Shown piece by piece: positions 25,337 through 34,525 of a stretch of DNA of 39,260 bases (its first letter is position 1; every line of letters begins with the position of its first letter). Source of the stretch: an uncultured Bifidobacterium sp. (GTDB taxonomy: Bacteria > Actinomycetota > Actinomycetes > S36-B12 > UBA5976); the NCBI GenBank assembly GCA_964639395.1, contig CAZXCT010000002.1, positions 11,925 to 51,184 of the forward strand. Direction: 5' to 3'. The position numbers and the translations under genes were made by a program. The notes under the pieces were generated by a model that was given only the letters and a program-made list of their open reading frames with translations, was not told the DNA's origin and did no database searches.

Positions 25337-26500
25337 CTATCTAAGAAAGTCTGGAATATCTAATTCGTCATCAGCCGTATCGTCAAAAACCACTCGTCGC
25401 GGTGTAACCGCTTCGGTGGCATCAAAATCATTTTTTATCACCGGTTGCGGTCCTGTCGTTTCGTTGGCATTAACAAAATCTGGAATCTCTGAATCCTCAG
25501 ACTTATCGTTTGCTGCTCCAGTGGGAGTCCAAGGCCGATTGGATGGTTCGTAAGAATCAAAACCAGCCGCGATTACCGTCACCCGCACTTCATCACCCAA
25601 GGTGTCGTCAATAACTGTTCCAAAAATTATATTTGCTTCTGGATGTGCCACATCGGCTACCAGGCGGGCAGCTTCATTAATTTCAAATAAACCTAAATCC
25701 GAACCACCCGCGATAGACAGCAATACACCTTTTGCTCCATCGATACTGGCTTCAAGTAGCGGACTGGCAATCGCATTACGTGCTGCCTCGGCTGCTCTGT
25801 TCTCGCCACGTGCCATACCAATACCCATTAAGGCGCTTCCCGCACCTTTCATCACACTTCGAACATCTGCGAAGTCGAGATTAATTAATCCTGGGGTGGT
25901 AATTAAATCTGTGATGCCACTTACGCCCTGTAATAGCACGTGATCGGCTTGCTTAAATGCGTCTAGCATTGAAATGTTTTTATCTGAAAGACTCAATAGC
26001 CGATCATTTGGAATGACAATTAAAGTGTCAACTTCTTTTCGAAGCGCTTCTACTCCAATTTCTGCTTGACCAATTCTGCGCTGACCTTCAAAATTAAATG
26101 GTTTGGTAACAACACCAATCGTCAAAGCCCCTTGTTCGCGGGCAATTCTTGCGACAACCGGTGCACCACCTGTGCCGGTGCCGCCACCTTCCCCGGCCGT
26201 GACAAATACCATGTCAGCCCCACGGAGTACGTCACTTAATTCTTCGCTGTGATCTTCTGCTGCTTGTCGACCCACTGTTGGGTCAGCACCAGCACCAAGC
26301 CCACGTGTCAATTCCCTACCAATATCTAGCTTTACGTCTGCGTCGCTCATTAATAGCGCTTGCGCATCAGTATTTATCGCGACAAATTCGACACCTTTTA
26401 CGCCTACTTCAATCATTCGATTAATAGCGTTGACACCGCCACCACCAATACCCACAACTTTGATAACCGCTAAATAATTTTGCGGTGCGACCACGCCCAT
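25337..26500 (-). CDS. ftsZ: Cell division GTPase FtsZ
   Basis: 387 aa. [24 protein letters not shown], and the C-terminal peptide [11 protein letters not shown]. Confidence 0.98.
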
Positions 26501-26738
26501 GCCCCTTTGTTAAATCTAAACCTTTACTTGAGCCTTAAACTTTTTCACACATTTTGGCGGACAGAACCTATGTAATGGCCGAATCATTTGCAAGCAAGCC
26601 TGTCGGCGTGTCTCGATAATTATTTCTATATATATAGTGATGCGAAATACCATTGTCCCACCATCCACAAGCGAATGCGTTTAATAATCTTGCGGTTAAG
26701 GTAGGGGCAAGCAACGTTCAAGGGGCAGTAAACTTTTT
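26501..26738. promoter_or_regulatory. Divergent ftsZ / pntAA control region (largest non-coding stretch in the window)
   Basis: 238 nt between two divergent start codons. AT-rich core TATTTCTATATATATAGT (26621-26638). AAAGGGG precedes the ftsZ ATG. Promoters are assigned by position only. Confidence 0.5.
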
Positions 26739-27875
26739 ATGAAACTCGTAGTGGTTAAAGAAACCAAGCCAGGTGAAAAACGCGTTGCGGTAGTTCCAGA
26801 AGTAATTTCCAAGCTCATCAAATTAGGGTTTGAAGTAGAAGTAGAGTCCGGTGCTGGAGTTTCCAGTTTAAGTGAAGATCAGGCCTATTTAGCGGTCGGT
26901 GCAAAAATTATTTCTGACCTGAATCAATCACTGGCGGCCGCGGATGTGGTGGTAAGTGTAAATCCTTTAGAAGTCAGTTTAATAAAAAGTCTCAAACCCG
27001 CTACGGTGCTAATTTCTTTTGCGCAGGCTAAAAGAGATTTAGAAAGTCTAAAAGCAATTATCAATCAAAAAGCAACTATCTTGTCATTCGATTTTCTACC
27101 CCGAATCTCAAGAGCGCAGGCGGCAGACGCACTAACTTCACAAGCAACCGTTGCCGGCTATCACACAATGTTGAAGGCCTCAAGTCTGAGTCAAAGAATG
27201 TTCCCGCTAGTGATGACAGCTTCTGGAACGATCAGACCCGCAAAAGTTTTAGTACTTGGTGCAGGTGTAGCAGGATTGCAGGTTATGAGTGTGGCTAAAA
27301 AGTTGGGAGCAGTCGTCTTCGGATATGACGTGCGAGTTGCCTCTAAAGACGAAGTAAAATCAGTAGGAGCAACTTTTATTGAATTAGATTTACCACCATT
27401 AGAGGGCTCAGGCGGTTACGCCAGAGAGTTAAATGAAGAACGATCCAAGTTGCAACAAGAATTGTTAACACCTTATATAACCGCTAGCGATGTTTTAGTT
27501 ACAACTGCGATGGTGCCAGGCAGGCCCGCGCCACGACTGGTTAGCGCAGAAATGTTAAAGACGATGCGCGCCGGAAGTGTAGTTGCCGATATGGCCGCAG
27601 AAAGTGGTGGAAATGTCGAAGGAACTAAAACCGGCGAAACTATTTCTTATTTTGGGGTCACCATTTGGGGCGGCGCAAACATTGCAAGTCAAATGAGTCC
27701 TGATGCCTCATTTTTGTATTCTGGAAATATCGTCGCGATGTTGGGATTCTGCGTAAAAGAAAATGCGCTCAATCTTGATATGAATGACGAAGTGATCAAG
27801 GGTGCTGCCCTAGTGGCGCAGGGCGAAGTAGTAAATGATTTTCTTCGGCAAGAATTAACAGCGGAGTCAAAATAA
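26739..27875 (+). CDS. pntAA: NAD(P) transhydrogenase subunit alpha part 1 (dI, NAD(H)-binding)
   Basis: 378 aa. KETKPGEKRVA and VLGAGVAGLQ (Rossmann) motifs; alanine-dehydrogenase-like fold. Confidence 0.93.
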   Translation: MKLVVVKETKPGEKRVAVVPEVISKLIKLGFEVEVESGAGVSSLSEDQAYLAVGAKIISDLNQSLAAADVVVSVNPLEVSLIKSLKPATVLISFAQAKRDLESLKAIINQKATILSFDFLPRISRAQAADALTSQATVAGYHTMLKASSLSQRMFPLVMTASGTIRPAKVLVLGAGVAGLQVMSVAKKLGAVVFGYDVRVASKDEVKSVGATFIELDLPPLEGSGGYARELNEERSKLQQELLTPYITASDVLVTTAMVPGRPAPRLVSAEMLKTMRAGSVVADMAAESGGNVEGTKTGETISYFGVTIWGGANIASQMSPDASFLYSGNIVAMLGFCVKENALNLDMNDEVIKGAALVAQGEVVNDFLRQELTAESK

Positions 27876-28172
27876 ATGGATCAATTAGCCCTTTTAACTA
27901 TTTTTATCTTGAGTATTTTTGTTGGATATGAAGTGGTTTCGAAAGTCTCGACAGTTTTGCACACACCATTGATGAGTGGAGCCAACGCGATTCATGGAAT
28001 CATCTTGGTTGGAGCGATAATCGTCACCTCTCATGCATCAGGTGCGGTTGAATTAACTATCGGCGCCATTGCAATTGTGCTTTCTGCAATAAATATGGTG
28101 GGTGGATTTGTTGTAACAGATCGAATGTTGGATTTATTTAAGCCAAAAAAGAAGGCAGAAGATAAATCATGA
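27876..28172 (+). CDS. pntAB: NAD(P) transhydrogenase subunit alpha part 2 (membrane)
   Basis: 98 aa, three hydrophobic helices. VHTPLMSGANAIHGI motif. Starts the nucleotide after the pntAA stop. Confidence 0.9.
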   Translation: MDQLALLTIFILSIFVGYEVVSKVSTVLHTPLMSGANAIHGIILVGAIIVTSHASGAVELTIGAIAIVLSAINMVGGFVVTDRMLDLFKPKKKAEDKS

Positions 28173-29548
28173 ATTCTCCCGTCTGGACAGAAATAGTAAA
28201 TTTAGTTGCCGCGGTTGCTTTTATCTTGGCGTTAAAAGCGCTAGCAGGGCCTAAAACTGCTCGACTCGGTAACCGAATTGGTGCTATTGGCGCTGTCGTT
28301 GCCACCGTAGTTGTCTTTTTTGCTATCAATGAAGTTGCCAACGCAGAAATTATTTTGGTCTCTATCGCCGTGGGATCAATTTTAGGATATATCGCCGCGA
28401 AAAAAGTTCAAATGACGCAAATGCCGCAAATGGTTGCACTATTTAATGGTGCTGGTGGCGGAGCCGCCATGGCGGTTGCCTTAATTGAATTTTTAACTGG
28501 ATCAATATTTTCATCACCCATCTCGCTAATCGCGACGGTGCTAACGATAATTATCGGTGGGGTGGCTTTTACTGGCTCAATTGTTACATTTTTAAAACTT
28601 CAAGAATTGATGACTTCACGTCCAGTAATTATCCCCTTAGGAAGATTTATTACGATCGGTGTTGCCCTAGCAAACGTATTTTTTGCGATGTATTTGATTT
28701 ACTCGCCACAAGTTTGGATGATGTGGACGCTGGCGATTTTGTCACTAGTACTAGGTGTGCTGTTTGTCTTGCCCGTCGGCGGCGCAGATGTGCCGATTGT
28801 AATTAGTTTGCTAAACGCCTTCACGGGTTTGTCTGTAGCTGGTATGGGTTACGTGCTTGGAAACGTTTTGCTGCTCATCGGCGGAACGCTAGTAGGCGCA
28901 TCAGGAACCTTATTGACACAACTGATGGCACAAGCAATGGGCAGGCCACTTACCAACACATTGTTTGGAGCTTTTACCGCAACCGCACAAAGCGTTGTAA
29001 GTAGCTCAGAAGACCGCGCCGTCAAATCTGCTCAGCCTAATGACATTGCAATTATGTTGGCCTACGCTTCGCGCGTAATAATTGTTCCAGGATACGGGCT
29101 AGCTGTAGCGCAAGCACAACAATCACTTCGTGAATTAGTTGAATTGCTAATAGCAAAAGGAATAGAAGTGCAATATGCAATTCACCCTGTTGCTGGACGA
29201 ATGCCCGGCCACATGAATGTCTTACTAGCAGAGGCAGATGTGCCTTATGAGCAATTAAAAGAAATGGACGAGATAAATTCTGATTTTGCTTCTACTGATG
29301 TAGCTTTGGTAGTTGGCGCTAACGATGTAGTTAATCCGGCGGCAAGAAGTGATGCCACTTCCCCGATCTACGGCATGCCTATATTAAATGTAGATCAAGC
29401 AACGCAGGTTGTCTTTATGAAGCGATCAATGAGACCTGGATTTGCTGGAATCGAAAACGAATTGTTATTCAACGATAAAACTACGCTGCTATTTGGCGAT
29501 GCCAAAGAATCTATTACAAAAACTATTGCTGCGGTCAAGGCTTTATAA
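28169..29548 (+). CDS. pntB: NAD(P) transhydrogenase subunit beta
   Basis: 459 aa. Polytopic N-terminal part and a C-terminal dIII domain (VPGYGLAVAQAQ, IHPVAGRMPGHMNVLLAEA, GANDVVNPAA). 4-nt overlap with pntAB. Confidence 0.95.
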   Translation: MNSPVWTEIVNLVAAVAFILALKALAGPKTARLGNRIGAIGAVVATVVVFFAINEVANAEIILVSIAVGSILGYIAAKKVQMTQMPQMVALFNGAGGGAAMAVALIEFLTGSIFSSPISLIATVLTIIIGGVAFTGSIVTFLKLQELMTSRPVIIPLGRFITIGVALANVFFAMYLIYSPQVWMMWTLAILSLVLGVLFVLPVGGADVPIVISLLNAFTGLSVAGMGYVLGNVLLLIGGTLVGASGTLLTQLMAQAMGRPLTNTLFGAFTATAQSVVSSSEDRAVKSAQPNDIAIMLAYASRVIIVPGYGLAVAQAQQSLRELVELLIAKGIEVQYAIHPVAGRMPGHMNVLLAEADVPYEQLKEMDEINSDFASTDVALVVGANDVVNPAARSDATSPIYGMPILNVDQATQVVFMKRSMRPGFAGIENELLFNDKTTLLFGDAKESITKTIAAVKAL

Positions 29549-29564
29549 GAACTTCCGCTGTAGG

Positions 29565-29574
29565 TTACTAGTAA
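29565..29574. repeat. Perfect 10-bp palindrome TTACTAGTAA in the pntB-nuclease gap
   Basis: Read directly from the sequence; it is its own reverse complement. Function unknown (possible operator). Confidence 0.6.
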
Positions 29575-29578
29575 TCGC

Positions 29579-29596
29579 AGTATCTGAAAGGATACT
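29579..29596 (+). promoter_or_regulatory. Hairpin AGTATC-TGAAAG-GATACT overlapping the putative RBS of the first nuclease gene
   Basis: A 6-bp perfect stem with a 6-nt loop, followed by ATTTTC and then the ATG at 29603. The only SD-like element (AAAGGA, 29587-29592) lies in the loop and 3' arm. Confidence 0.3.
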
Positions 29597-29602
29597 ATTT
29601 TC

Positions 29603-30496
29603 ATGGTTGAATTGGCAGTTGCCGTCGAAGATGTTGGGTCTGCCTTGCCAGCACATCTCTCGCCTAGCCAATTAAGCACATTTGAAAAGTGTCAATTAAG
29701 TTATTGGTTCTCATCTGTTGCCGGATGGCGCGAACCACCCCAACTGGCGCAAATTGCCGGAAGTCTAGTTCATGATGTTTTAGAGAATTTATTAAAACTT
29801 CCTGCTCCAGAAAGAAATCGAGATATTGCCTGGGATTTGTTGCGAGAAGTTGGCGCCACCTCAATCTCGGTTAATCAATCTTGGCTAACTGCTAGCGCCA
29901 TTTCTGAATTAAAATTTAAAAGTGCTGATTCTTTAACAAACTACTTCAAGCTAGAAGATCCAGCAAAAATAGAAGTTACTCATGAAGATCTCGAGAGACC
30001 CGTAAGTGCGATAGTTAAAGACGTCAAACTTTATGGAAGACTTGACAGAATCACTCGCAAACCCGTTGTGCGAATCAGTGACTATAAAACATCGAAAAAA
30101 CCTGATGCAAAATATTTACCTGAGACGCTGCGACAGGTGATGCTTTATGCCGCTGGCCTACAGCTACAAGGTGAGAAAGTAGATGAAGTTGAGTTAATTT
30201 ATCTGGGCTCAGCTGAAAGAGTTATCCGCCCCACCTATCCGCAAGCACTCGATCGGGCATTGGTTGATTTAGTGAACGCGCGATCAGAAATGGAATCTGC
30301 CCTAGTTCGCAAAGAGTGGATTGCTAAAACCGGACCGCTTTGCAGATACTGCGCTTTTGCTCCGGTATGTCCCGCAAAAAATGAAGCCGCGGCTACCCCC
30401 GGATCAGATCAGTCAAATCAAGCACTCACCTCACTTAAATTAGAAAAACGTTTAAGGACGAACTCTCAAACTGAGACGGGTCTTCCTTTTGAATAG
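29603..30496 (+). CDS. Stand-alone PD-(D/E)XK nuclease of the RecB/AddB/Cas4 type with a four-cysteine (4Fe-4S) signature
   Basis: 297 aa. LSPSQLSTFEKC(30), GRLD(148), ISD(160)YK(162), Q(178)VMLY(182) and C(247)RYC(250)AFAPVC(256)P. Confidence 0.85.
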   Translation: MVELAVAVEDVGSALPAHLSPSQLSTFEKCQLSYWFSSVAGWREPPQLAQIAGSLVHDVLENLLKLPAPERNRDIAWDLLREVGATSISVNQSWLTASAISELKFKSADSLTNYFKLEDPAKIEVTHEDLERPVSAIVKDVKLYGRLDRITRKPVVRISDYKTSKKPDAKYLPETLRQVMLYAAGLQLQGEKVDEVELIYLGSAERVIRPTYPQALDRALVDLVNARSEMESALVRKEWIAKTGPLCRYCAFAPVCPAKNEAAATPGSDQSNQALTSLKLEKRLRTNSQTETGLPFE

Positions 30497-32336
30497 TAAT
30501 CAAATTTCTGTTCCCCCTTGGCATCCCAGCTTTGTTCACAAGCCAGGTGACTTCATTAGATTGAGCGCAACTCAAATTGGTGTGTCCAGCGAGCGAGTAT
30601 GTTTAGATAATTTTGCATTAAAATCAAGACCAAATACTAAAGTAACAAATAGCTACGCTCCAGCAAGTAAAGAGCAATTTCATAGCTTTCCACTCGCCCT
30701 AGTGAAAGATATTTATGTAGCCAGCTTAAACGCAAAAGGATTAAATTTTAATAGCGACGAAGCAGCAGATTTCGTTGCTACAGATTATAAAAATATAATT
30801 AAACAAACTAAATCACAGATACATCCCGCCACAATCAAATGGATAGATGATGCCATCGCTGGTTTTGCTAAAGCCTGGCAGGACGCAAACGCAGAGTCAA
30901 CCGATAGCGAGTTGAAGCAGCTAATTGATCCGATGTATTTTGCTGATGCGGCTACGCCAGTCGAGTTATTTGCCTGGGGTATATTTCTTGCGTCTGAAGA
31001 TTACTCATTGCGCGAATTTAGAATTCTCAAAATACATTCAGCGGGCAAGTCGGAGCTAGATCCAAATCGACTCAAGAGCATTTTAAAGATTTTGGTTCAT
31101 GGTCAAGCTAACAGTGGAATTGATTACGCCACCCCTACTGAAAAAATTAACAATATTTGGCCGACCCCCACTCGAGTTCGAATACGGGAGCTGGCAGTGC
31201 TAGATGGCTCGCAAAAGTTGATCTACGATTCACTAGTCTCAGATGTTATTTTTGATGAAGATGATTTATTCCAAGAGATCGAAAAGCGTTTAGCCGGCGG
31301 GCAACAAAAAGTATCTACTGATTGCCTTAAGTGCAAAGCGCAAACTGTTTGCCCATCGCTTCCTACTAAAGCTGGTGTGCTTGGCGTAATTAATCGGGCG
31401 GATCGCCCAAAAAGTTTTTCTCCTTCAAAATTAAATTCCTATCTAAGGTGTAATCATGCCTATTTTTTACAACATGAATTGGCATTGCATGCTGTACCAA
31501 AACTGAGTACCGCTGCTCAAGAGCGCGGAATGCTGATACATGAATGGCTTGAACAGGCTCATTCCAGAAATATAAAGTGTAGTAAGTCTGATATTTCACC
31601 AGATGTTAACAATGAATCAATTTCTCAAATTTTAAATTGGACGCAGTTGCAAGTTGAGGCAACCAATGAATATTTGAAGCAGCACCTAAAGGCATGTCCC
31701 ATTAAAAATGATTCTGAATCTGTCCATGAAGTTGATATGTGGGTAATGGATTCTGACGCCTGGGTACTGGTAGGCACAAGGCCGGACTTGCTTTACACCG
31801 ATAAAAACACCTTGGTATGGCGTGAGGTCAAAACTACCGATAAAAAACTAGAGCTATCTTTGGATGCCTATCTAGATATGTATTCGCAGATTTCATTGGC
31901 AATTGTTTTAATGTCACGAGTTAAAAACTTGCCAAACTTAAAACCTGCTTGGAACGAACTTGCGAAAAGAAGAGTTGAATTAGAAATAGTTACAAAAGAA
32001 GATGTGCAAGTTATTAAGTTCGATATTTCCGACAGTGAAATCACAACTTCGGCTTGGAAGAAACTTGCCCAGCAAGCGGATCGTTGGATTGAAGACAAAG
32101 CGTTCATTCCAAGTCAAAATCCTCCCTGTCAGTGGTGCGCCTACTCGCAATGGTGCGAATTTGCTGACACGCAGTTGAGAATGGTTGAGATTGATGGGGT
32201 CAAAGTGGACGTGGCGACTGGCGAAATTTTGGGTCAAGCGAACGCTACCGCTGAGTCCGGTCAGATCGCTCGGGCTTTGGGATTGATTGCCACAATGGGT
32301 GAAGCTGCCGATTCACCTGATGACGTTCCGTTTTAA
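30489..32336 (+). CDS. Two-domain protein: degenerate Cys-cluster nuclease-like N-half plus apparently intact Cas4/AddB-type PD-(D/E)XK nuclease C-half; ends in DDVPF
   Basis: 615 aa. N-half: LSATQIGVSSERVC(38) and C(279)LKC(282)KAQTVC(288)P. C-half: SPSKLNSYLRC(321), IHEWLE, RPD(433), WRE(446)VK(448) and C(547)QWC(550)AYSQWC(556). TTG start overlaps the upstream gene by 8 nt. An in-frame stop at 30453-30455 excludes an earlier start. Confidence 0.75.
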   Translation: MNSNQISVPPWHPSFVHKPGDFIRLSATQIGVSSERVCLDNFALKSRPNTKVTNSYAPASKEQFHSFPLALVKDIYVASLNAKGLNFNSDEAADFVATDYKNIIKQTKSQIHPATIKWIDDAIAGFAKAWQDANAESTDSELKQLIDPMYFADAATPVELFAWGIFLASEDYSLREFRILKIHSAGKSELDPNRLKSILKILVHGQANSGIDYATPTEKINNIWPTPTRVRIRELAVLDGSQKLIYDSLVSDVIFDEDDLFQEIEKRLAGGQQKVSTDCLKCKAQTVCPSLPTKAGVLGVINRADRPKSFSPSKLNSYLRCNHAYFLQHELALHAVPKLSTAAQERGMLIHEWLEQAHSRNIKCSKSDISPDVNNESISQILNWTQLQVEATNEYLKQHLKACPIKNDSESVHEVDMWVMDSDAWVLVGTRPDLLYTDKNTLVWREVKTTDKKLELSLDAYLDMYSQISLAIVLMSRVKNLPNLKPAWNELAKRRVELEIVTKEDVQVIKFDISDSEITTSAWKKLAQQADRWIEDKAFIPSQNPPCQWCAYSQWCEFADTQLRMVEIDGVKVDVATGEILGQANATAESGQIARALGLIATMGEAADSPDDVPF

Positions 32337-32360
32337 ATTGGCTATGAATAGTATTTACTT

Positions 32361-33857
32361 ATGAGTACCACACTTCCCCATTCAGTTGCCAATCCAAATA
32401 ACACTAGAACGCAAGAACTACTCTCGCGTATCCCTACCGGTCTTTTAATCGGAAACCAATTTATTGCCGGAAGTGATCCTAAATTTTGCGTTTATGATCC
32501 AGCAAATGGTGAGGTGTTAACTGAAGTCGCCAATGCCAACGAGTCTGATTTAGCTGCTGCGCTAACGCTTGCTGCCGAGGCGCAACCACTTTGGGCAAAG
32601 ACGCCCCCAAGAGAGCGGGCTGAAGTTCTCAGAAGAGCATTTGAACTCATGGTGAAACAAGCCGATGATATTGCCTTAACGATGTCACTAGAAAATGGAA
32701 AAACCTTAGCGGACGCAAAAGCTGAGACTTTATATGCCGCTGAATTTTTTAGATGGTTTAGTGAAGAAGCAGTACGCATCGACGGTTCGTTTCGCACAGC
32801 ACCAAGTGGACTAAACAAAATTATCACATTGCGCCAGCCGGTAGGGGTAGCTTTTTTAATTACCCCATGGAACTTTCCTGCCGCAATGTTCACTCGAAAA
32901 GTAGGCCCAGCGATTGCTGCTGGTGCCGCCGCGATTTTAAAGCCGGCACAAGAAACGCCCTTAACTGCACTTTTAATCGGTGAAATATTGATTAAAGCCG
33001 GACTGCCAAGTGGGGTTTGTTCAATTTTGCCAACCACTAATTCTTCAAAACTCACAAAGGCCGCGCTAAGCGATGCCCGAATTAGAAAGTTATCGTTCAC
33101 TGGCTCTACTCAAGTTGGAAAGTTGTTACTTCAGCAAGCCGCAGCGCGCGTACTTAATACCTCAATGGAACTCGGTGGTAACGCTCCTTTCATTATTTTA
33201 GATGATGCCGATATTGATTTGGCGGTTGATGGAGCGATGTTGGCAAAAATGCGAAATGGTGGTCAGGCCTGTACCGCAGCAAATAGATTCTTTGTGCAAG
33301 ATGCAGTACACGATAAATTTGTACAACAACTTTCAATGCGAATGCAGTCACTTAAACCTGGCCACGGGATAGACGAACAAACCACTTTGGCCCCGCTGGT
33401 TAATCGTAAAGCGGTTGAGTCAATTGATCTATTGGTTAAGTCGGCGATTACAAGTGGAGCAAAACAGCATACGGGTGGCTCAATAAATGAAGGCCCCGGC
33501 AGTTTCTTTCCGGCAACCGTATTAGGTGATGTTCCATCACATGCGCAAATAGTGCAAGATGAAATATTCGGGCCAGTTGCTGCAGTTGTGCGAGTAAAAG
33601 ATGAATTTGAAGCAATCGCGTTAGCAAATTTGAGTGAGTTTGGATTGGCTGGTTATGTTTACACTAAAGATGTCGCTCGAGGTTTACGGGTTTCTCAAAG
33701 TTTAGAAGTCGGCATGGTCGGATTAAATCGTGGATTAGTTTCTGATCCGGCTGCCCCCTTCGGTGGAGTTAAGCAATCTGGAATCGGCCGCGAAGGTGGC
33801 TATGAGGGAATTGATGAATATCTAGAAGTAAAATATATTGCTACTAACGATTTTTAG
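32361..33857 (+). CDS. gabD: Aldehyde dehydrogenase family, most like succinate-semialdehyde dehydrogenase
   Basis: 498 aa. FLITPWNFP, SFTGSTQVG, ELGGNAPFII and GGQACTAANRFFV (catalytic Cys) motifs. Substrate specificity is inferred by resemblance only. Confidence 0.7.
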   Translation: MSTTLPHSVANPNNTRTQELLSRIPTGLLIGNQFIAGSDPKFCVYDPANGEVLTEVANANESDLAAALTLAAEAQPLWAKTPPRERAEVLRRAFELMVKQADDIALTMSLENGKTLADAKAETLYAAEFFRWFSEEAVRIDGSFRTAPSGLNKIITLRQPVGVAFLITPWNFPAAMFTRKVGPAIAAGAAAILKPAQETPLTALLIGEILIKAGLPSGVCSILPTTNSSKLTKAALSDARIRKLSFTGSTQVGKLLLQQAAARVLNTSMELGGNAPFIILDDADIDLAVDGAMLAKMRNGGQACTAANRFFVQDAVHDKFVQQLSMRMQSLKPGHGIDEQTTLAPLVNRKAVESIDLLVKSAITSGAKQHTGGSINEGPGSFFPATVLGDVPSHAQIVQDEIFGPVAAVVRVKDEFEAIALANLSEFGLAGYVYTKDVARGLRVSQSLEVGMVGLNRGLVSDPAAPFGGVKQSGIGREGGYEGIDEYLEVKYIATNDF

Positions 33858-34525
33858 TTCTCAATCGGGACATTTATTACCGGCACTTCTGGCGTACTAA
33901 CATCAATATCACCTGTGGCGGTGCGAAGTAAAACTCTCAAAACTGCCGCCTTATCGACAGGTTTTAGTTCATCCCCCCAATTGATTCGTCTTCCTGAATT
34001 TAGGATCACCGTGGCACTAACGCCATTTACGCTCTCTACTAGTGCTACCTCACCTATCAACCACTCCGGCAAGATTCGAGCTACGCGCGCTGCTAATCCT
34101 CGCGCTGAATTATTTGGTGCGGTAACAAATCGATATACGTCATTTGGCCCAGCTCTCGTGAAAGCTATTCCGTCCTCATCTACCAAATATCTTCCATCTG
34201 CTAAATCAGTGAGCGCGATTGGAACGCGTTCGCTTACTACTATCGCAACGGTATTCGGCCAGCCCCTTCTCACCTCAACAGTATTTATTGTTTTTAAGGA
34301 TGATATTTGAGAAGCGACAGCTACGCTATCTAGATTAATTAAGGGTGTATTTAACTCTATTTCTGCTAGCTGTAATAATTCTGCTTCATTTATCCGACCG
34401 AGGCCAGCTACTGTAACTTTATTGATTAAAAAAAGGTTTGAAAAAAAAAGACTATAAACCACTGCCCCGCTGGCTAGTAGTAAAACAATCAAGATAAAAA
34501 TTAATCGTTTGCCTCTGGCGGTCAT
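33854..34525 (-). CDS. ftsQ: Cell division protein FtsQ (POTRA domain)
   Basis: 223 aa. N-terminal TM helix, then INKVTVAGLGRINEAEL...VEVRRGWPNTVAIVVSERVPIA (POTRA). Lies downstream of murC as in dcw clusters. Confidence 0.88.
   Translation of the reverse strand: MTARGKRLIFILIVLLLASGAVVYSLFFSNLFLINKVTVAGLGRINEAELLQLAEIELNTPLINLDSVAVASQISSLKTINTVEVRRGWPNTVAIVVSERVPIALTDLADGRYLVDEDGIAFTRAGPNDVYRFVTAPNNSARGLAARVARILPEWLIGEVALVESVNGVSATVILNSGRRINWGDELKPVDKAAVLRVLLRTATGDIDVSTPEVPVINVPIEN

Follow-up and report, generated by a model that had tools for sequence, protein, structure and literature searches.

Several Cas4-family nucleases work without a motor of their own, among them solo-Cas4, MGE-Cas4, ACE1, Exo5 and MGME1 (PMC5704561, PMC12094033). 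ACE1 (APACE1; PDB 9iab/9iac) is a motor-less single-stranded DNA (ssDNA) endonuclease of this family that works with an Argonaute (PMC12094033). Solo-Cas4 and MGE-Cas4 genes lie away from CRISPR-cas, are enriched in small-genome environmental microbes, are inherited vertically and have been proposed to act in defence or repair (Hudaiberdiev et al. 2017, PMC5704561). Here we examine two overlapping genes, open reading frames ORF1 and ORF2, in a 39,260-nucleotide stretch of an actinomycetal genome (GenBank assembly GCA_964639395.1, contig CAZXCT010000002.1, positions 11,925 to 51,184), which we call the window. Profile matches place the pair in the PD-(D/E)XK superfamily, and its cysteine patterns place it in the Cas4/AddB-type iron-staple group.

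The reading we favour, though tentatively, is that ORF1 and ORF2 form a motor-less iron-sulfur (Fe-S) nuclease pair of defence-island ancestry, which docks through a tail resembling that of SSB (single-stranded DNA-binding protein) and has a dual guard and repair role. In the literature we found, the coupled ORF1/tandem-ORF2 arrangement, the SSB-like tail and the fixation of the pair inside the division and cell-wall (dcw) cluster are undescribed. Non-CRISPR Cas4-family nucleases are common in small-genome environmental microbes and almost none has a known role, so this locus offers a concrete testable case. The Nanopelagicales, whose loci share this arrangement, are among the most abundant freshwater bacteria.

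Domain content of ORF1 and ORF2

Both proteins match the Pfam model PDDEXK_1 (PF12705) well above its gathering threshold of 22 bits: ORF1 over residues 18-257 (E = 4.7e-28, 99.2 bits) and ORF2 over residues 309-557 (E = 1.3e-20, 74.8 bits). The conserved residues of ORF1 are C30, G145/D148, D160-Y161-K162, Q178, Y182, C247, C250 and C256. Across 16 homologues neither its catalytic residues nor its cysteines vary, and it has exactly four cysteines (C30/C247/C250/C256), all in the cluster pattern. The only PDB sequence match of ORF1 is the AdnA nuclease domain (6ppu_A, E = 2.4e-5). In the C-domain of ORF2, residues C321, D433, E446, K448, C547, C550 and C556 are invariant or at least 90% conserved across 78 family members. 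When this domain was compared with the ORF1 family by hhalign, the match (E = 1.5e-15) clearly pointed to homology between the two.

These data agree with much of what the initial annotation had proposed. It had described two genes overlapping by 8 nt with a TTG start at 30489, and the coordinates were confirmed; the motifs it listed are all present and are conserved in the homologues (16 for ORF1, 78 for the ORF2 family). Its assignment of both proteins to iron-sulfur-type PD-(D/E)XK nucleases of the RecB/AddB/Cas4 kind is upheld by hidden Markov model and fold matches, and its flanking genes, pntB and an aldehyde dehydrogenase, were also found. Its account of ORF2 was correct for the nuclease C-half, while a Cas4-like N-half domain, an SSB-tip-like tail and a defence-associated family had been missed. 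The rule it invoked, that such nucleases work with a helicase or with Cas1/Cas2, does not hold, given the motor-less solo-Cas4, MGE-Cas4, ACE1, Exo5 and MGME1 (PMC5704561, PMC12094033).

Sequence and model place a third domain of the same fold in the N-half of ORF2. Its cysteines, C38 and C279xxC282x5C288, are invariant in alignments of 31-78 sequences. Residues 1-300, modelled with AlphaFold2 from 31 sequences, reached a predicted local distance difference test score (pLDDT) of 90.5 and a predicted template modelling score of 0.90. The best PDB matches of this model in Foldseek were ACE1 (9iac/9iab, E = 2.7e-5, TM-score ~0.45-0.53) and the AdnA nuclease domain (E = 7.7e-5), followed by Cas4 SSO0001, Exo5 and AddB; the best matches are all Cas4-type Fe-S nucleases. 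The model of full-length ORF2 (pLDDT 69.9) matched AdnA, ACE1, RecE, AddB, Exo5, Cas4 and MGME1. For full-length ORF2 and for the N-domain alone, Foldseek returned a probability of 1.0 and E values down to 9e-6, consistent with a restriction-endonuclease-like alpha/beta fold.

Profile comparison is consistent with these models. With the 78-sequence alignment, hhalign matched the N-domain collinearly to the ORF2 C-domain and to the ORF1 family (E = 2e-4 each), pairing C38 with ORF1 C30 and E176-x-R178 with E446-x-K448 and placing the CxxCx5C triads in register. A shallow 15-sequence alignment gave E = 0.023 for the N-half against the C-half. The D..(D/E)xK motif is absent from the N-domain, where E176-x-R178 stands in its place and there is no motif-II Asp. 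Because this Asp is lacking and an Arg occupies the position of the catalytic Lys, the N-domain is predicted to be inactive, and it is probably a scaffold or DNA-binding domain.

The pattern of one N-terminal cysteine plus CxxCx5C therefore occurs three times, at ORF1 C30/247/250/256, ORF2 C38/279/282/288 and ORF2 C321/547/550/556. Conservation across the family extends to all three of these sets and to two catalytic sets. Taken with the models, this indicates that the pair comprises three domains of Cas4 fold, each with a predicted [4Fe-4S] site, and that two of them, ORF1 and the ORF2 C-domain, have a complete D..(D/E)xK site. The ORF2 C-domain also has a near-invariant His/Cys set outside the Cas4 iron staple (H351, H358, C364, H399 and C403), which may be a further metal site. 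The extension that follows the C-domain (Table 1) is restricted to a long subgroup of the ORF2 family (590-670 aa).

The pair resembles AdnAB and AddAB in that two adjacent genes each give a nuclease domain of RecB type whose iron staple has 1+3 cysteines. It differs from them in having no UvrD-like motors: ORF1 and ORF2 have no Walker A motif, as had been noted from the sequence together with the lack of a motor domain or cas partner in cis, and they have no helicase or AAA match in Pfam. The paired RecB-type domains, the best PDB matches (AdnA and AddB) and weak matches to the C-termini of NCBIfam AddA and AddB models could all be expected of an AdnAB/AddAB remnant whose motors were lost in genome streamlining. 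This explanation is effectively refuted. The N-half of ORF2 is predicted to be a well-folded Cas4-type domain, a third nuclease fold with its own conserved cysteines, rather than a decayed or inactivated helicase. The same motor-less two-domain architecture is found in ~300 representatives from large-genome, high-GC Actinomycetota. Across the pair, the C-terminal matches to the AddB and AddA models reach 21-34 bits against cut-offs of 486-904, with AddB and AdnAB scores far below their cut-offs (34 versus 486 bits).

A CRISPR-associated adaptation nuclease is refuted for this locus. The Cas4 model TIGR00372 does match weakly, at 46 bits for ORF1 and 24.3 bits for ORF2, as does the PADLOC Cas4 model (1e-12), but both TIGR00372 scores lie below the equivalog cut-off of 65 bits. 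Moreover, the 39-kb window contains no cas gene (cas1/cas2), CRISPR array or tandem repeat, nor any helicase, Rfam match or mobile-element gene. Like solo-Cas4, ORF1 and ORF2 are Cas4-family nucleases away from CRISPR-cas; solo-Cas4, however, is a single-domain, single-gene nuclease, whereas here there are coupled genes, a tandem duplicated domain and an SSB-like tail.

ACE1 is the best structural match of the ORF2 N-domain and a top match of the full-length model, and it too is a motor-less Fe-S Cas4-family nuclease. It differs in being a single-domain protein of ~270 aa encoded beside a long-A pAgo in cyanobacteria, and identity is only 10-15%. Compared with ACE1, the present locus has no Argonaute, a tandem-domain subunit, a second distinct subunit and an SSB-like tail.

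The SSB-like tail of ORF2

The C-terminal tip of SSB (SSB-Ct) is the recruiting site for the many partner proteins of SSB. ORF2 ends in a similar way, with an acidic run and [IVP]-P-F at its extreme C-terminus (Table 1), after a stretch that is probably flexible. In the model, pLDDT is ~50-57 before the tail and falls to 27-37 at the end of ORF2; the low-confidence stretch is probably flexible much as is the linker before the SSB tip. All Nanopelagicales homologues of ORF2 end in an acidic run followed by [VI]PF. Among 119 full-length ORF2-family representatives, 47 end in PF, with DDEPPF, DDDIPF, DEDIPF and DEEFPF as typical endings, and high-GC members end exactly in DDEPPF, the mycobacterial SSB tip. 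For comparison, SSB-Ct reads WMDFDDDIPF in E. coli and GADDEPPF in M. smegmatis (PMC3575820).

The tail is specific to the ORF2 family in the DNA that we retrieved. Of the 1691 ORFs in this DNA (1.16 Mb) that are 100 aa or longer, 27 have the tail, and all 27 are ORF2-family members. ORF2 has no SSB or OB-fold match in Pfam and is made of nuclease folds. It thus differs from SSB in being a nuclease rather than an ssDNA-binding protein, so the tail would be a mimic; partner binding by the tail is suggested by its likeness to SSB-Ct.

In a neighbour-joining ordering of the family, all three members linked to pPIWI-RE and DinG genes fall in one large tail-less clade. The tail is present in almost all remaining clades, including the long subgroup that holds every ORF1-paired member.

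From these likenesses we infer the following arrangement, from Fe-S occupancy and complex formation to ssDNA specificity, tail function and biological role. ORF1 and ORF2 would be two subunits of one motor-less complex in which each Cas4-type domain holds a [4Fe-4S] iron staple. The active sites would resemble those of Cas4, ACE1 and the AdnAB/AddAB nuclease domains in cutting ssDNA threaded into a narrow channel (PMC12094033). If they accept only ssDNA, the substrates of the complex would be tails, flaps, gaps or ends that another enzyme has opened. The ORF2 tail would bind host genome-maintenance proteins, a helicase being the most useful of them, at the pockets that take up the SSB tip; or else it would compete with SSB. 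Either way, the tail would carry the nuclease to DNA intermediates coated with SSB and provide, in trans, the motor that is encoded in cis in relatives, namely DinG in the pPIWI-RE islands. A motor supplied through the tail would explain why the clade with DinG in cis is tail-less. The Nanopelagicales pair would then degrade unprotected or foreign DNA ends as well as replication intermediates, in a dual guard and repair role like that of RecBCD. If the tail works in this manner, it would explain how a motor-less nuclease gains access to DNA and would reveal a new plug into the SSB interaction hub for defence and repair enzymes.

A bolder version, which we think doubtful, is that ORF2 is the first natural non-SSB cellular protein with a working copy of the SSB tip, through which it borrows a host helicase, and that the pair defines a new class of three-domain, motor-less Fe-S nucleases for end or gap processing, which replaces AdnAB/RecBCD-type machines in Nanopelagicales and serves as an innate barrier to foreign DNA.

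Nanopelagicales ORF1 proteins have a conserved 'LPF' with acidic residues shortly before the stop codon (GLPFE, GLPFDD or MLPFGEEN). This is a second SSB-tip-like motif, although a non-terminal one. It overlaps the start region of ORF2, so coding constraints may contribute to it.

Relatives, pairing and descent

The initial annotation knew of no characterised system of this composition. However, ORF2 does have a catalogued relative: it matches PprPDDEXK (PDLC02423) in PADLOC, the accessory nuclease of pPIWI-RE islands, with E = 1e-45 and 154.8 bits over residues 48-557 (profile positions 14-442 of 449). A distant homologue of ORF2, P0022, matches the same profile with E = 9e-123 and 408.8 bits. 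These profile scores make ORF2 a distant PprPDDEXK family member. In common with the bona fide members P0022, P0076 and L118 it has the tandem Cas4-like architecture, the two sets of cysteines and the catalytic residues; it differs from them in belonging to another clade, with a C-terminal extension and an SSB-like tail, and in being paired with the single-domain Cas4-like ORF1. An exhaustive profile search among 1.84 billion proteins returned 313 ORF2-family representatives at 50% identity, most of them 520-670 aa long with the same two-domain layout.

We surveyed the contexts of 12 distinct family members outside the Nanopelagicales, drawing on 12 contig look-ups and four plasmid records. 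In high-GC Actinomycetota the family occurs beside pPIWI-RE/DinG triads, UvrD-like helicase genes or ImmA/IrrE genes, on plasmids and in defence islands. Four groups of contexts were seen. The first consists of pPIWI-RE/DinG four-gene systems (L002, L033 and L118) in defence islands with kinase, N6-methyltransferase, AbiE or TIR genes. P0022 lies directly upstream of genes matching PprRE and PprDinG/pPIWI_RE_Z, and the full order of PD-(D/E)XK gene, Y/restriction endonuclease (REase), DinG-like helicase and pPIWI-RE is present at the P0076 locus (L033) and on a Streptomyces rimosus plasmid (L118). In two of these three loci, a divergent Ser/Thr kinase gene adjoins the tandem Cas4-like gene.

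The pPIWI-RE system was described as a three-gene operon of REase, DinG helicase and pPIWI-RE, in which a PD-(D/E)XK gene is unmentioned (Burroughs et al. 2013, PMC3702460). Our literature search found no paper that discusses this fourth gene. The 'three-gene' system thus often has a fourth, unstudied nuclease gene, as seen here in L002, L033 and L118. The window itself differs from these three loci in having no PprRE (Y-REase), PprDinG (Z-helicase) or pPIWI-RE gene; no Argonaute or other PIWI gene was found within it either. The cooperation of ACE1 with a PIWI-family protein parallels the pPIWI-RE relatives of ORF2. Searches for literature on DNA repair or defence in Nanopelagicales, on 'PprPDDEXK' and on SSB-Ct mimics on nucleases found nothing relevant, and PMC7641849, considered as a 'PIWI-RE' paper, was set aside as a false match to 'Piwi-related'.

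In the second group (L031, P0084), a relative ending in ...DDDPPPF is followed by a gene for a 689-aa UvrD-like helicase, with Ser/Thr kinase and N6-methyltransferase genes opposite (L031 2252-9797). The same pairing of kinase and methyltransferase stands beside the pPIWI-RE locus L002. The third group is a conserved trio in which an ORF2 relative is joined by a hypothetical protein of 245-268 aa and by a divergent ImmA/IrrE metallopeptidase (L032 2398-5973; L116 7097-10668; L117 6992-10694). Two of these are plasmids, from Rhodococcus (L116) and Streptomyces (L117), and one trio locus adjoins an EcoRI-family methyltransferase and a DUF262 gene. The trio looks like an undescribed candidate defence or addiction module; its ORF2 relatives are of a short-form, mostly tail-bearing subgroup.

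The fourth group holds the ORF1-ORF2 pair itself (L003-5 and L012; L006/7; L034; L035). The L035 pair has a Bil-like ubiquitin-like system on one side and a SIR2-like gene on the other. In L006 (10911-14692), the GC-0.63 pair stands beside opposite-strand genes for a DEAD/Helicase_C/MZB helicase and a protein of RNase_H_2 fold. These resemble the MrfA/MrfB (SftH-type) repair pair, which could be a coincidence or a repair link.

The presence of relatives in defence islands and on plasmids favours an origin in defence or in conflict with mobile elements. The annotation had asked whether the homologues are always fused or adjacent to UvrD-like helicases. They are not. One relative (L031) is followed by such a helicase, and the pPIWI-RE relatives have DinG in cis.

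The pair likewise occurs outside this genome and in different contexts. It recurs in ~30 loci and in four unrelated contexts, namely the Nanopelagicales dcw locus, L006/7, L034 and L035. Pairing is kept in these unrelated neighbourhoods down to ~40% identity for ORF1 and 27% for ORF2. In all 25 pairs extracted, the stop and start codons overlap by 1 (TAATG), 4 (ATGA/GTGA/TTGA) or 8 nt, an arrangement suited to the translational coupling that the annotation had suggested.

These results bear on whether the two proteins are independent solo Cas4-like nucleases that simply lie side by side, with no complex and with no docking role for the PF tail. Solo-Cas4 proteins act alone and ACE1 is a homo-oligomer, some tail-bearing ORF2 relatives have no ORF1 partner (L031, L032 and L116), and more distant ORF1 homologues (29-30% identity) are solo. 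Nevertheless, we consider independence improbable given the overlap in every extracted pair, the retention of pairing across four contexts to such low identity, and a tail that is confined to the ORF2 family and kept across very divergent members.

The descent of the Nanopelagicales pair is consistent with vertical inheritance. The order ftsZ / pntAA-pntAB-pntB-ORF1-ORF2-(aldH) / ftsQ-murC holds at L001 and at 18 of 18 genome loci of Nanopelagicales type. A metagenome search that started from pntB, blind to the pair, gave the same picture: all five Nanopelagicales-type loci with downstream DNA carry the pair, four of them in full and one cut by the contig end. The identity of ORF1 and ORF2 follows that of pntB across 24 loci (r = 0.97-0.98), which fits the expectation of vertical co-descent. 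Within the block, ORF2 evolves fastest, with 36% identity where pntB has 74%. In Nanopelagicales, then, the module belongs to the core genome, is inherited vertically and lies between ftsZ and ftsQ. The fixed core position favours a housekeeping or dual role, as does vertical inheritance, which is typical of small-genome solo-cas4 (PMC5704561). Because the module is fixed in the core genome, its function matters for the way in which streamlined genomes deal with DNA breaks and with phage DNA.

The strongest competitor to a dual role is pure housekeeping repair, with no part in defence. The pair would be an end- or gap-processing nuclease that substitutes for the AdnAB/RecBCD nucleases or RecJ and feeds RecA/RecFOR. 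We regard this as possible but the less likely of the two. At every Nanopelagicales-type locus seen, and also in a GC-0.56 relative, the dcw position is fixed; the divergence of the pair tracks that of its neighbours, and the whole 39-kb window consists of core genes. An SSB-type tail would also imply integration with host DNA metabolism, and the nuclease domains of AdnA and AddB are among the closest relatives by sequence and fold. A repair function alone accounts less well for a family that is rare and patchy outside the Nanopelagicales clade (313 representatives among 1.84 billion proteins) and whose members lie beside pPIWI-RE, Bil-like, SIR2-like, restriction-modification, AbiE and TIR genes, on plasmids and in defence islands.

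Several observations weigh against the nuclease pair of defence-island ancestry that we prefer. Defence genes do not typically keep a stable core position over order-level divergence. A tblastn search of 50,697 phage records returned no ORF2 homologue, and no pair-type ORF1 homologue was found on plasmids. Gene overlap alone is no proof of a stoichiometric ORF1:ORF2 complex. As for the tail, its function is assigned from sequence resemblance only; the tail-bearing relative in L031 has a UvrD-like helicase in cis, so that 'tail replaces cis helicase' is no clean rule; and the split between tail-bearing and tail-less members amounts to essentially one or a few phylogenetic events rather than many independent correlations.

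The locus in the window

Table 1. Positions in the window of ORF1, ORF2, their parts and the neighbouring features
Feature	Position	Strand	Description
ORF1	29603..30496	+	ATG start, 297 aa; predicted single-domain Cas4-family PD-(D/E)XK nuclease with full catalytic motif set
ORF1 'LPF' motif	30470-30496		Non-terminal, with acidic residues
ORF1/ORF2 junction	30489..30496	+	8-nt overlap, TTGAATAG; ORF1 stop TAG 30494-30496, ORF2 start TTG 30489
ORF2	30489..32336	+	TTG start, 615 aa
ORF2 N-domain	30489..31388	+	Residues 1-300; predicted Cas4-family fold; 1+3 cysteines C38, C279xxC282x5C288
ORF2 C-domain	31401..32168	+	Residues ~305-560; predicted active-type Cas4-family nuclease: C321, D421, D433, E446-V-K448, C547xxC550x5C556
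ORF2 His/Cys set	31539-31697		Candidate further metal site
ORF2 C-terminal extension	32169..32309	+	Residues 561-607; predicted small beta-hairpin + helix, conserved VDxxTGEI...ARALGL, low model confidence
ORF2 acidic tip	32310..32336	+	DSPDDVPF + stop codon; likeness to SSB-Ct
pntAA-pntAB-pntB	26739..29548	+	NAD(P) transhydrogenase; upstream neighbours, 54-nt gap to ORF1; context only
aldH	32361..33857	+	Succinate-semialdehyde dehydrogenase (SSADH)-like aldehyde dehydrogenase; downstream neighbour, 24-nt gap from ORF2; context only
Interruption of dcw cluster	25337-34525		~7-kb opposite-strand block between ftsZ and ftsQ
Antisense ORF	29395-29679	-	Opposite pntB/ORF1
Antisense ORF	31980-32237	-	Opposite ORF2
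Antisense ORF	32492-33100	-	Opposite aldH

The genes of the 39-kb window were annotated with Pfam on all ORFs of at least 150 aa. Besides the pair, they belong to core metabolism and cell division: the trp and his operons, dnaE, ileS, divIVA, sepF, ftsZ, pntAA/AB/B, the SSADH-like aldehyde dehydrogenase gene, ftsQ, murC, murG, ftsW and murD. The dcw cluster is interrupted between ftsZ and ftsQ by the block pntAA-pntAB-pntB-ORF1-ORF2-aldH. This interruption is kept across Nanopelagicales (GC 0.35-0.43) and in the GC-0.56 relative L004 (loci L001, L004, L013-L028 and L036-L040).

The position of the pair within this block raises the possibility that the nucleases are tied to the PntAB transhydrogenase and the SSADH-like aldehyde dehydrogenase, for example in processing DNA damage induced by aldehydes or redox stress. 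The pair and these neighbours share a strand and lie close together (gaps of 54 and 24 nt), and a scan for promoters and terminators gave counts at or below shuffled expectation, with no terminator signal above background. The pnt-pair-aldH order is also found in Nanopelagicales and in the GC-0.55 relatives L003 and L012. We nevertheless judge a functional link of this kind very unlikely. The aldH gene is missing in L015, L021 and L025, where ORF1-ORF2 lies directly beside ftsQ, which indicates that the nuclease pair is the more stable part of the block. Furthermore, the pairs of L006, L034 and L035 have neither pnt nor aldH, most other pnt loci, from other taxa, lack the pair, and two unrelated membrane and lipoprotein genes precede aldH in L003 and L012.

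The two extra genes of L003 (5781-7096) and L012 (2924-4218) encode a glycine-rich, membrane-like protein of 253 aa and a lipobox-bearing lipoprotein of 175-182 aa, neither with a Pfam match; they are probably unrelated to the nucleases. We considered them as components of the system and rejected them, because they are absent here and from other pairs and have no features related to nucleic acids.

Three antisense ORFs (85-202 aa) lie opposite well-supported genes (Table 1) and are probably not real. The TTG start of ORF2 is uncommon in the family, as nearly all relatives start with ATG and a few with GTG or TTG. In the closest genomes, ORF2 has an ATG one codon downstream of the start used here, and this codon is changed from ATG to AAT in the window.

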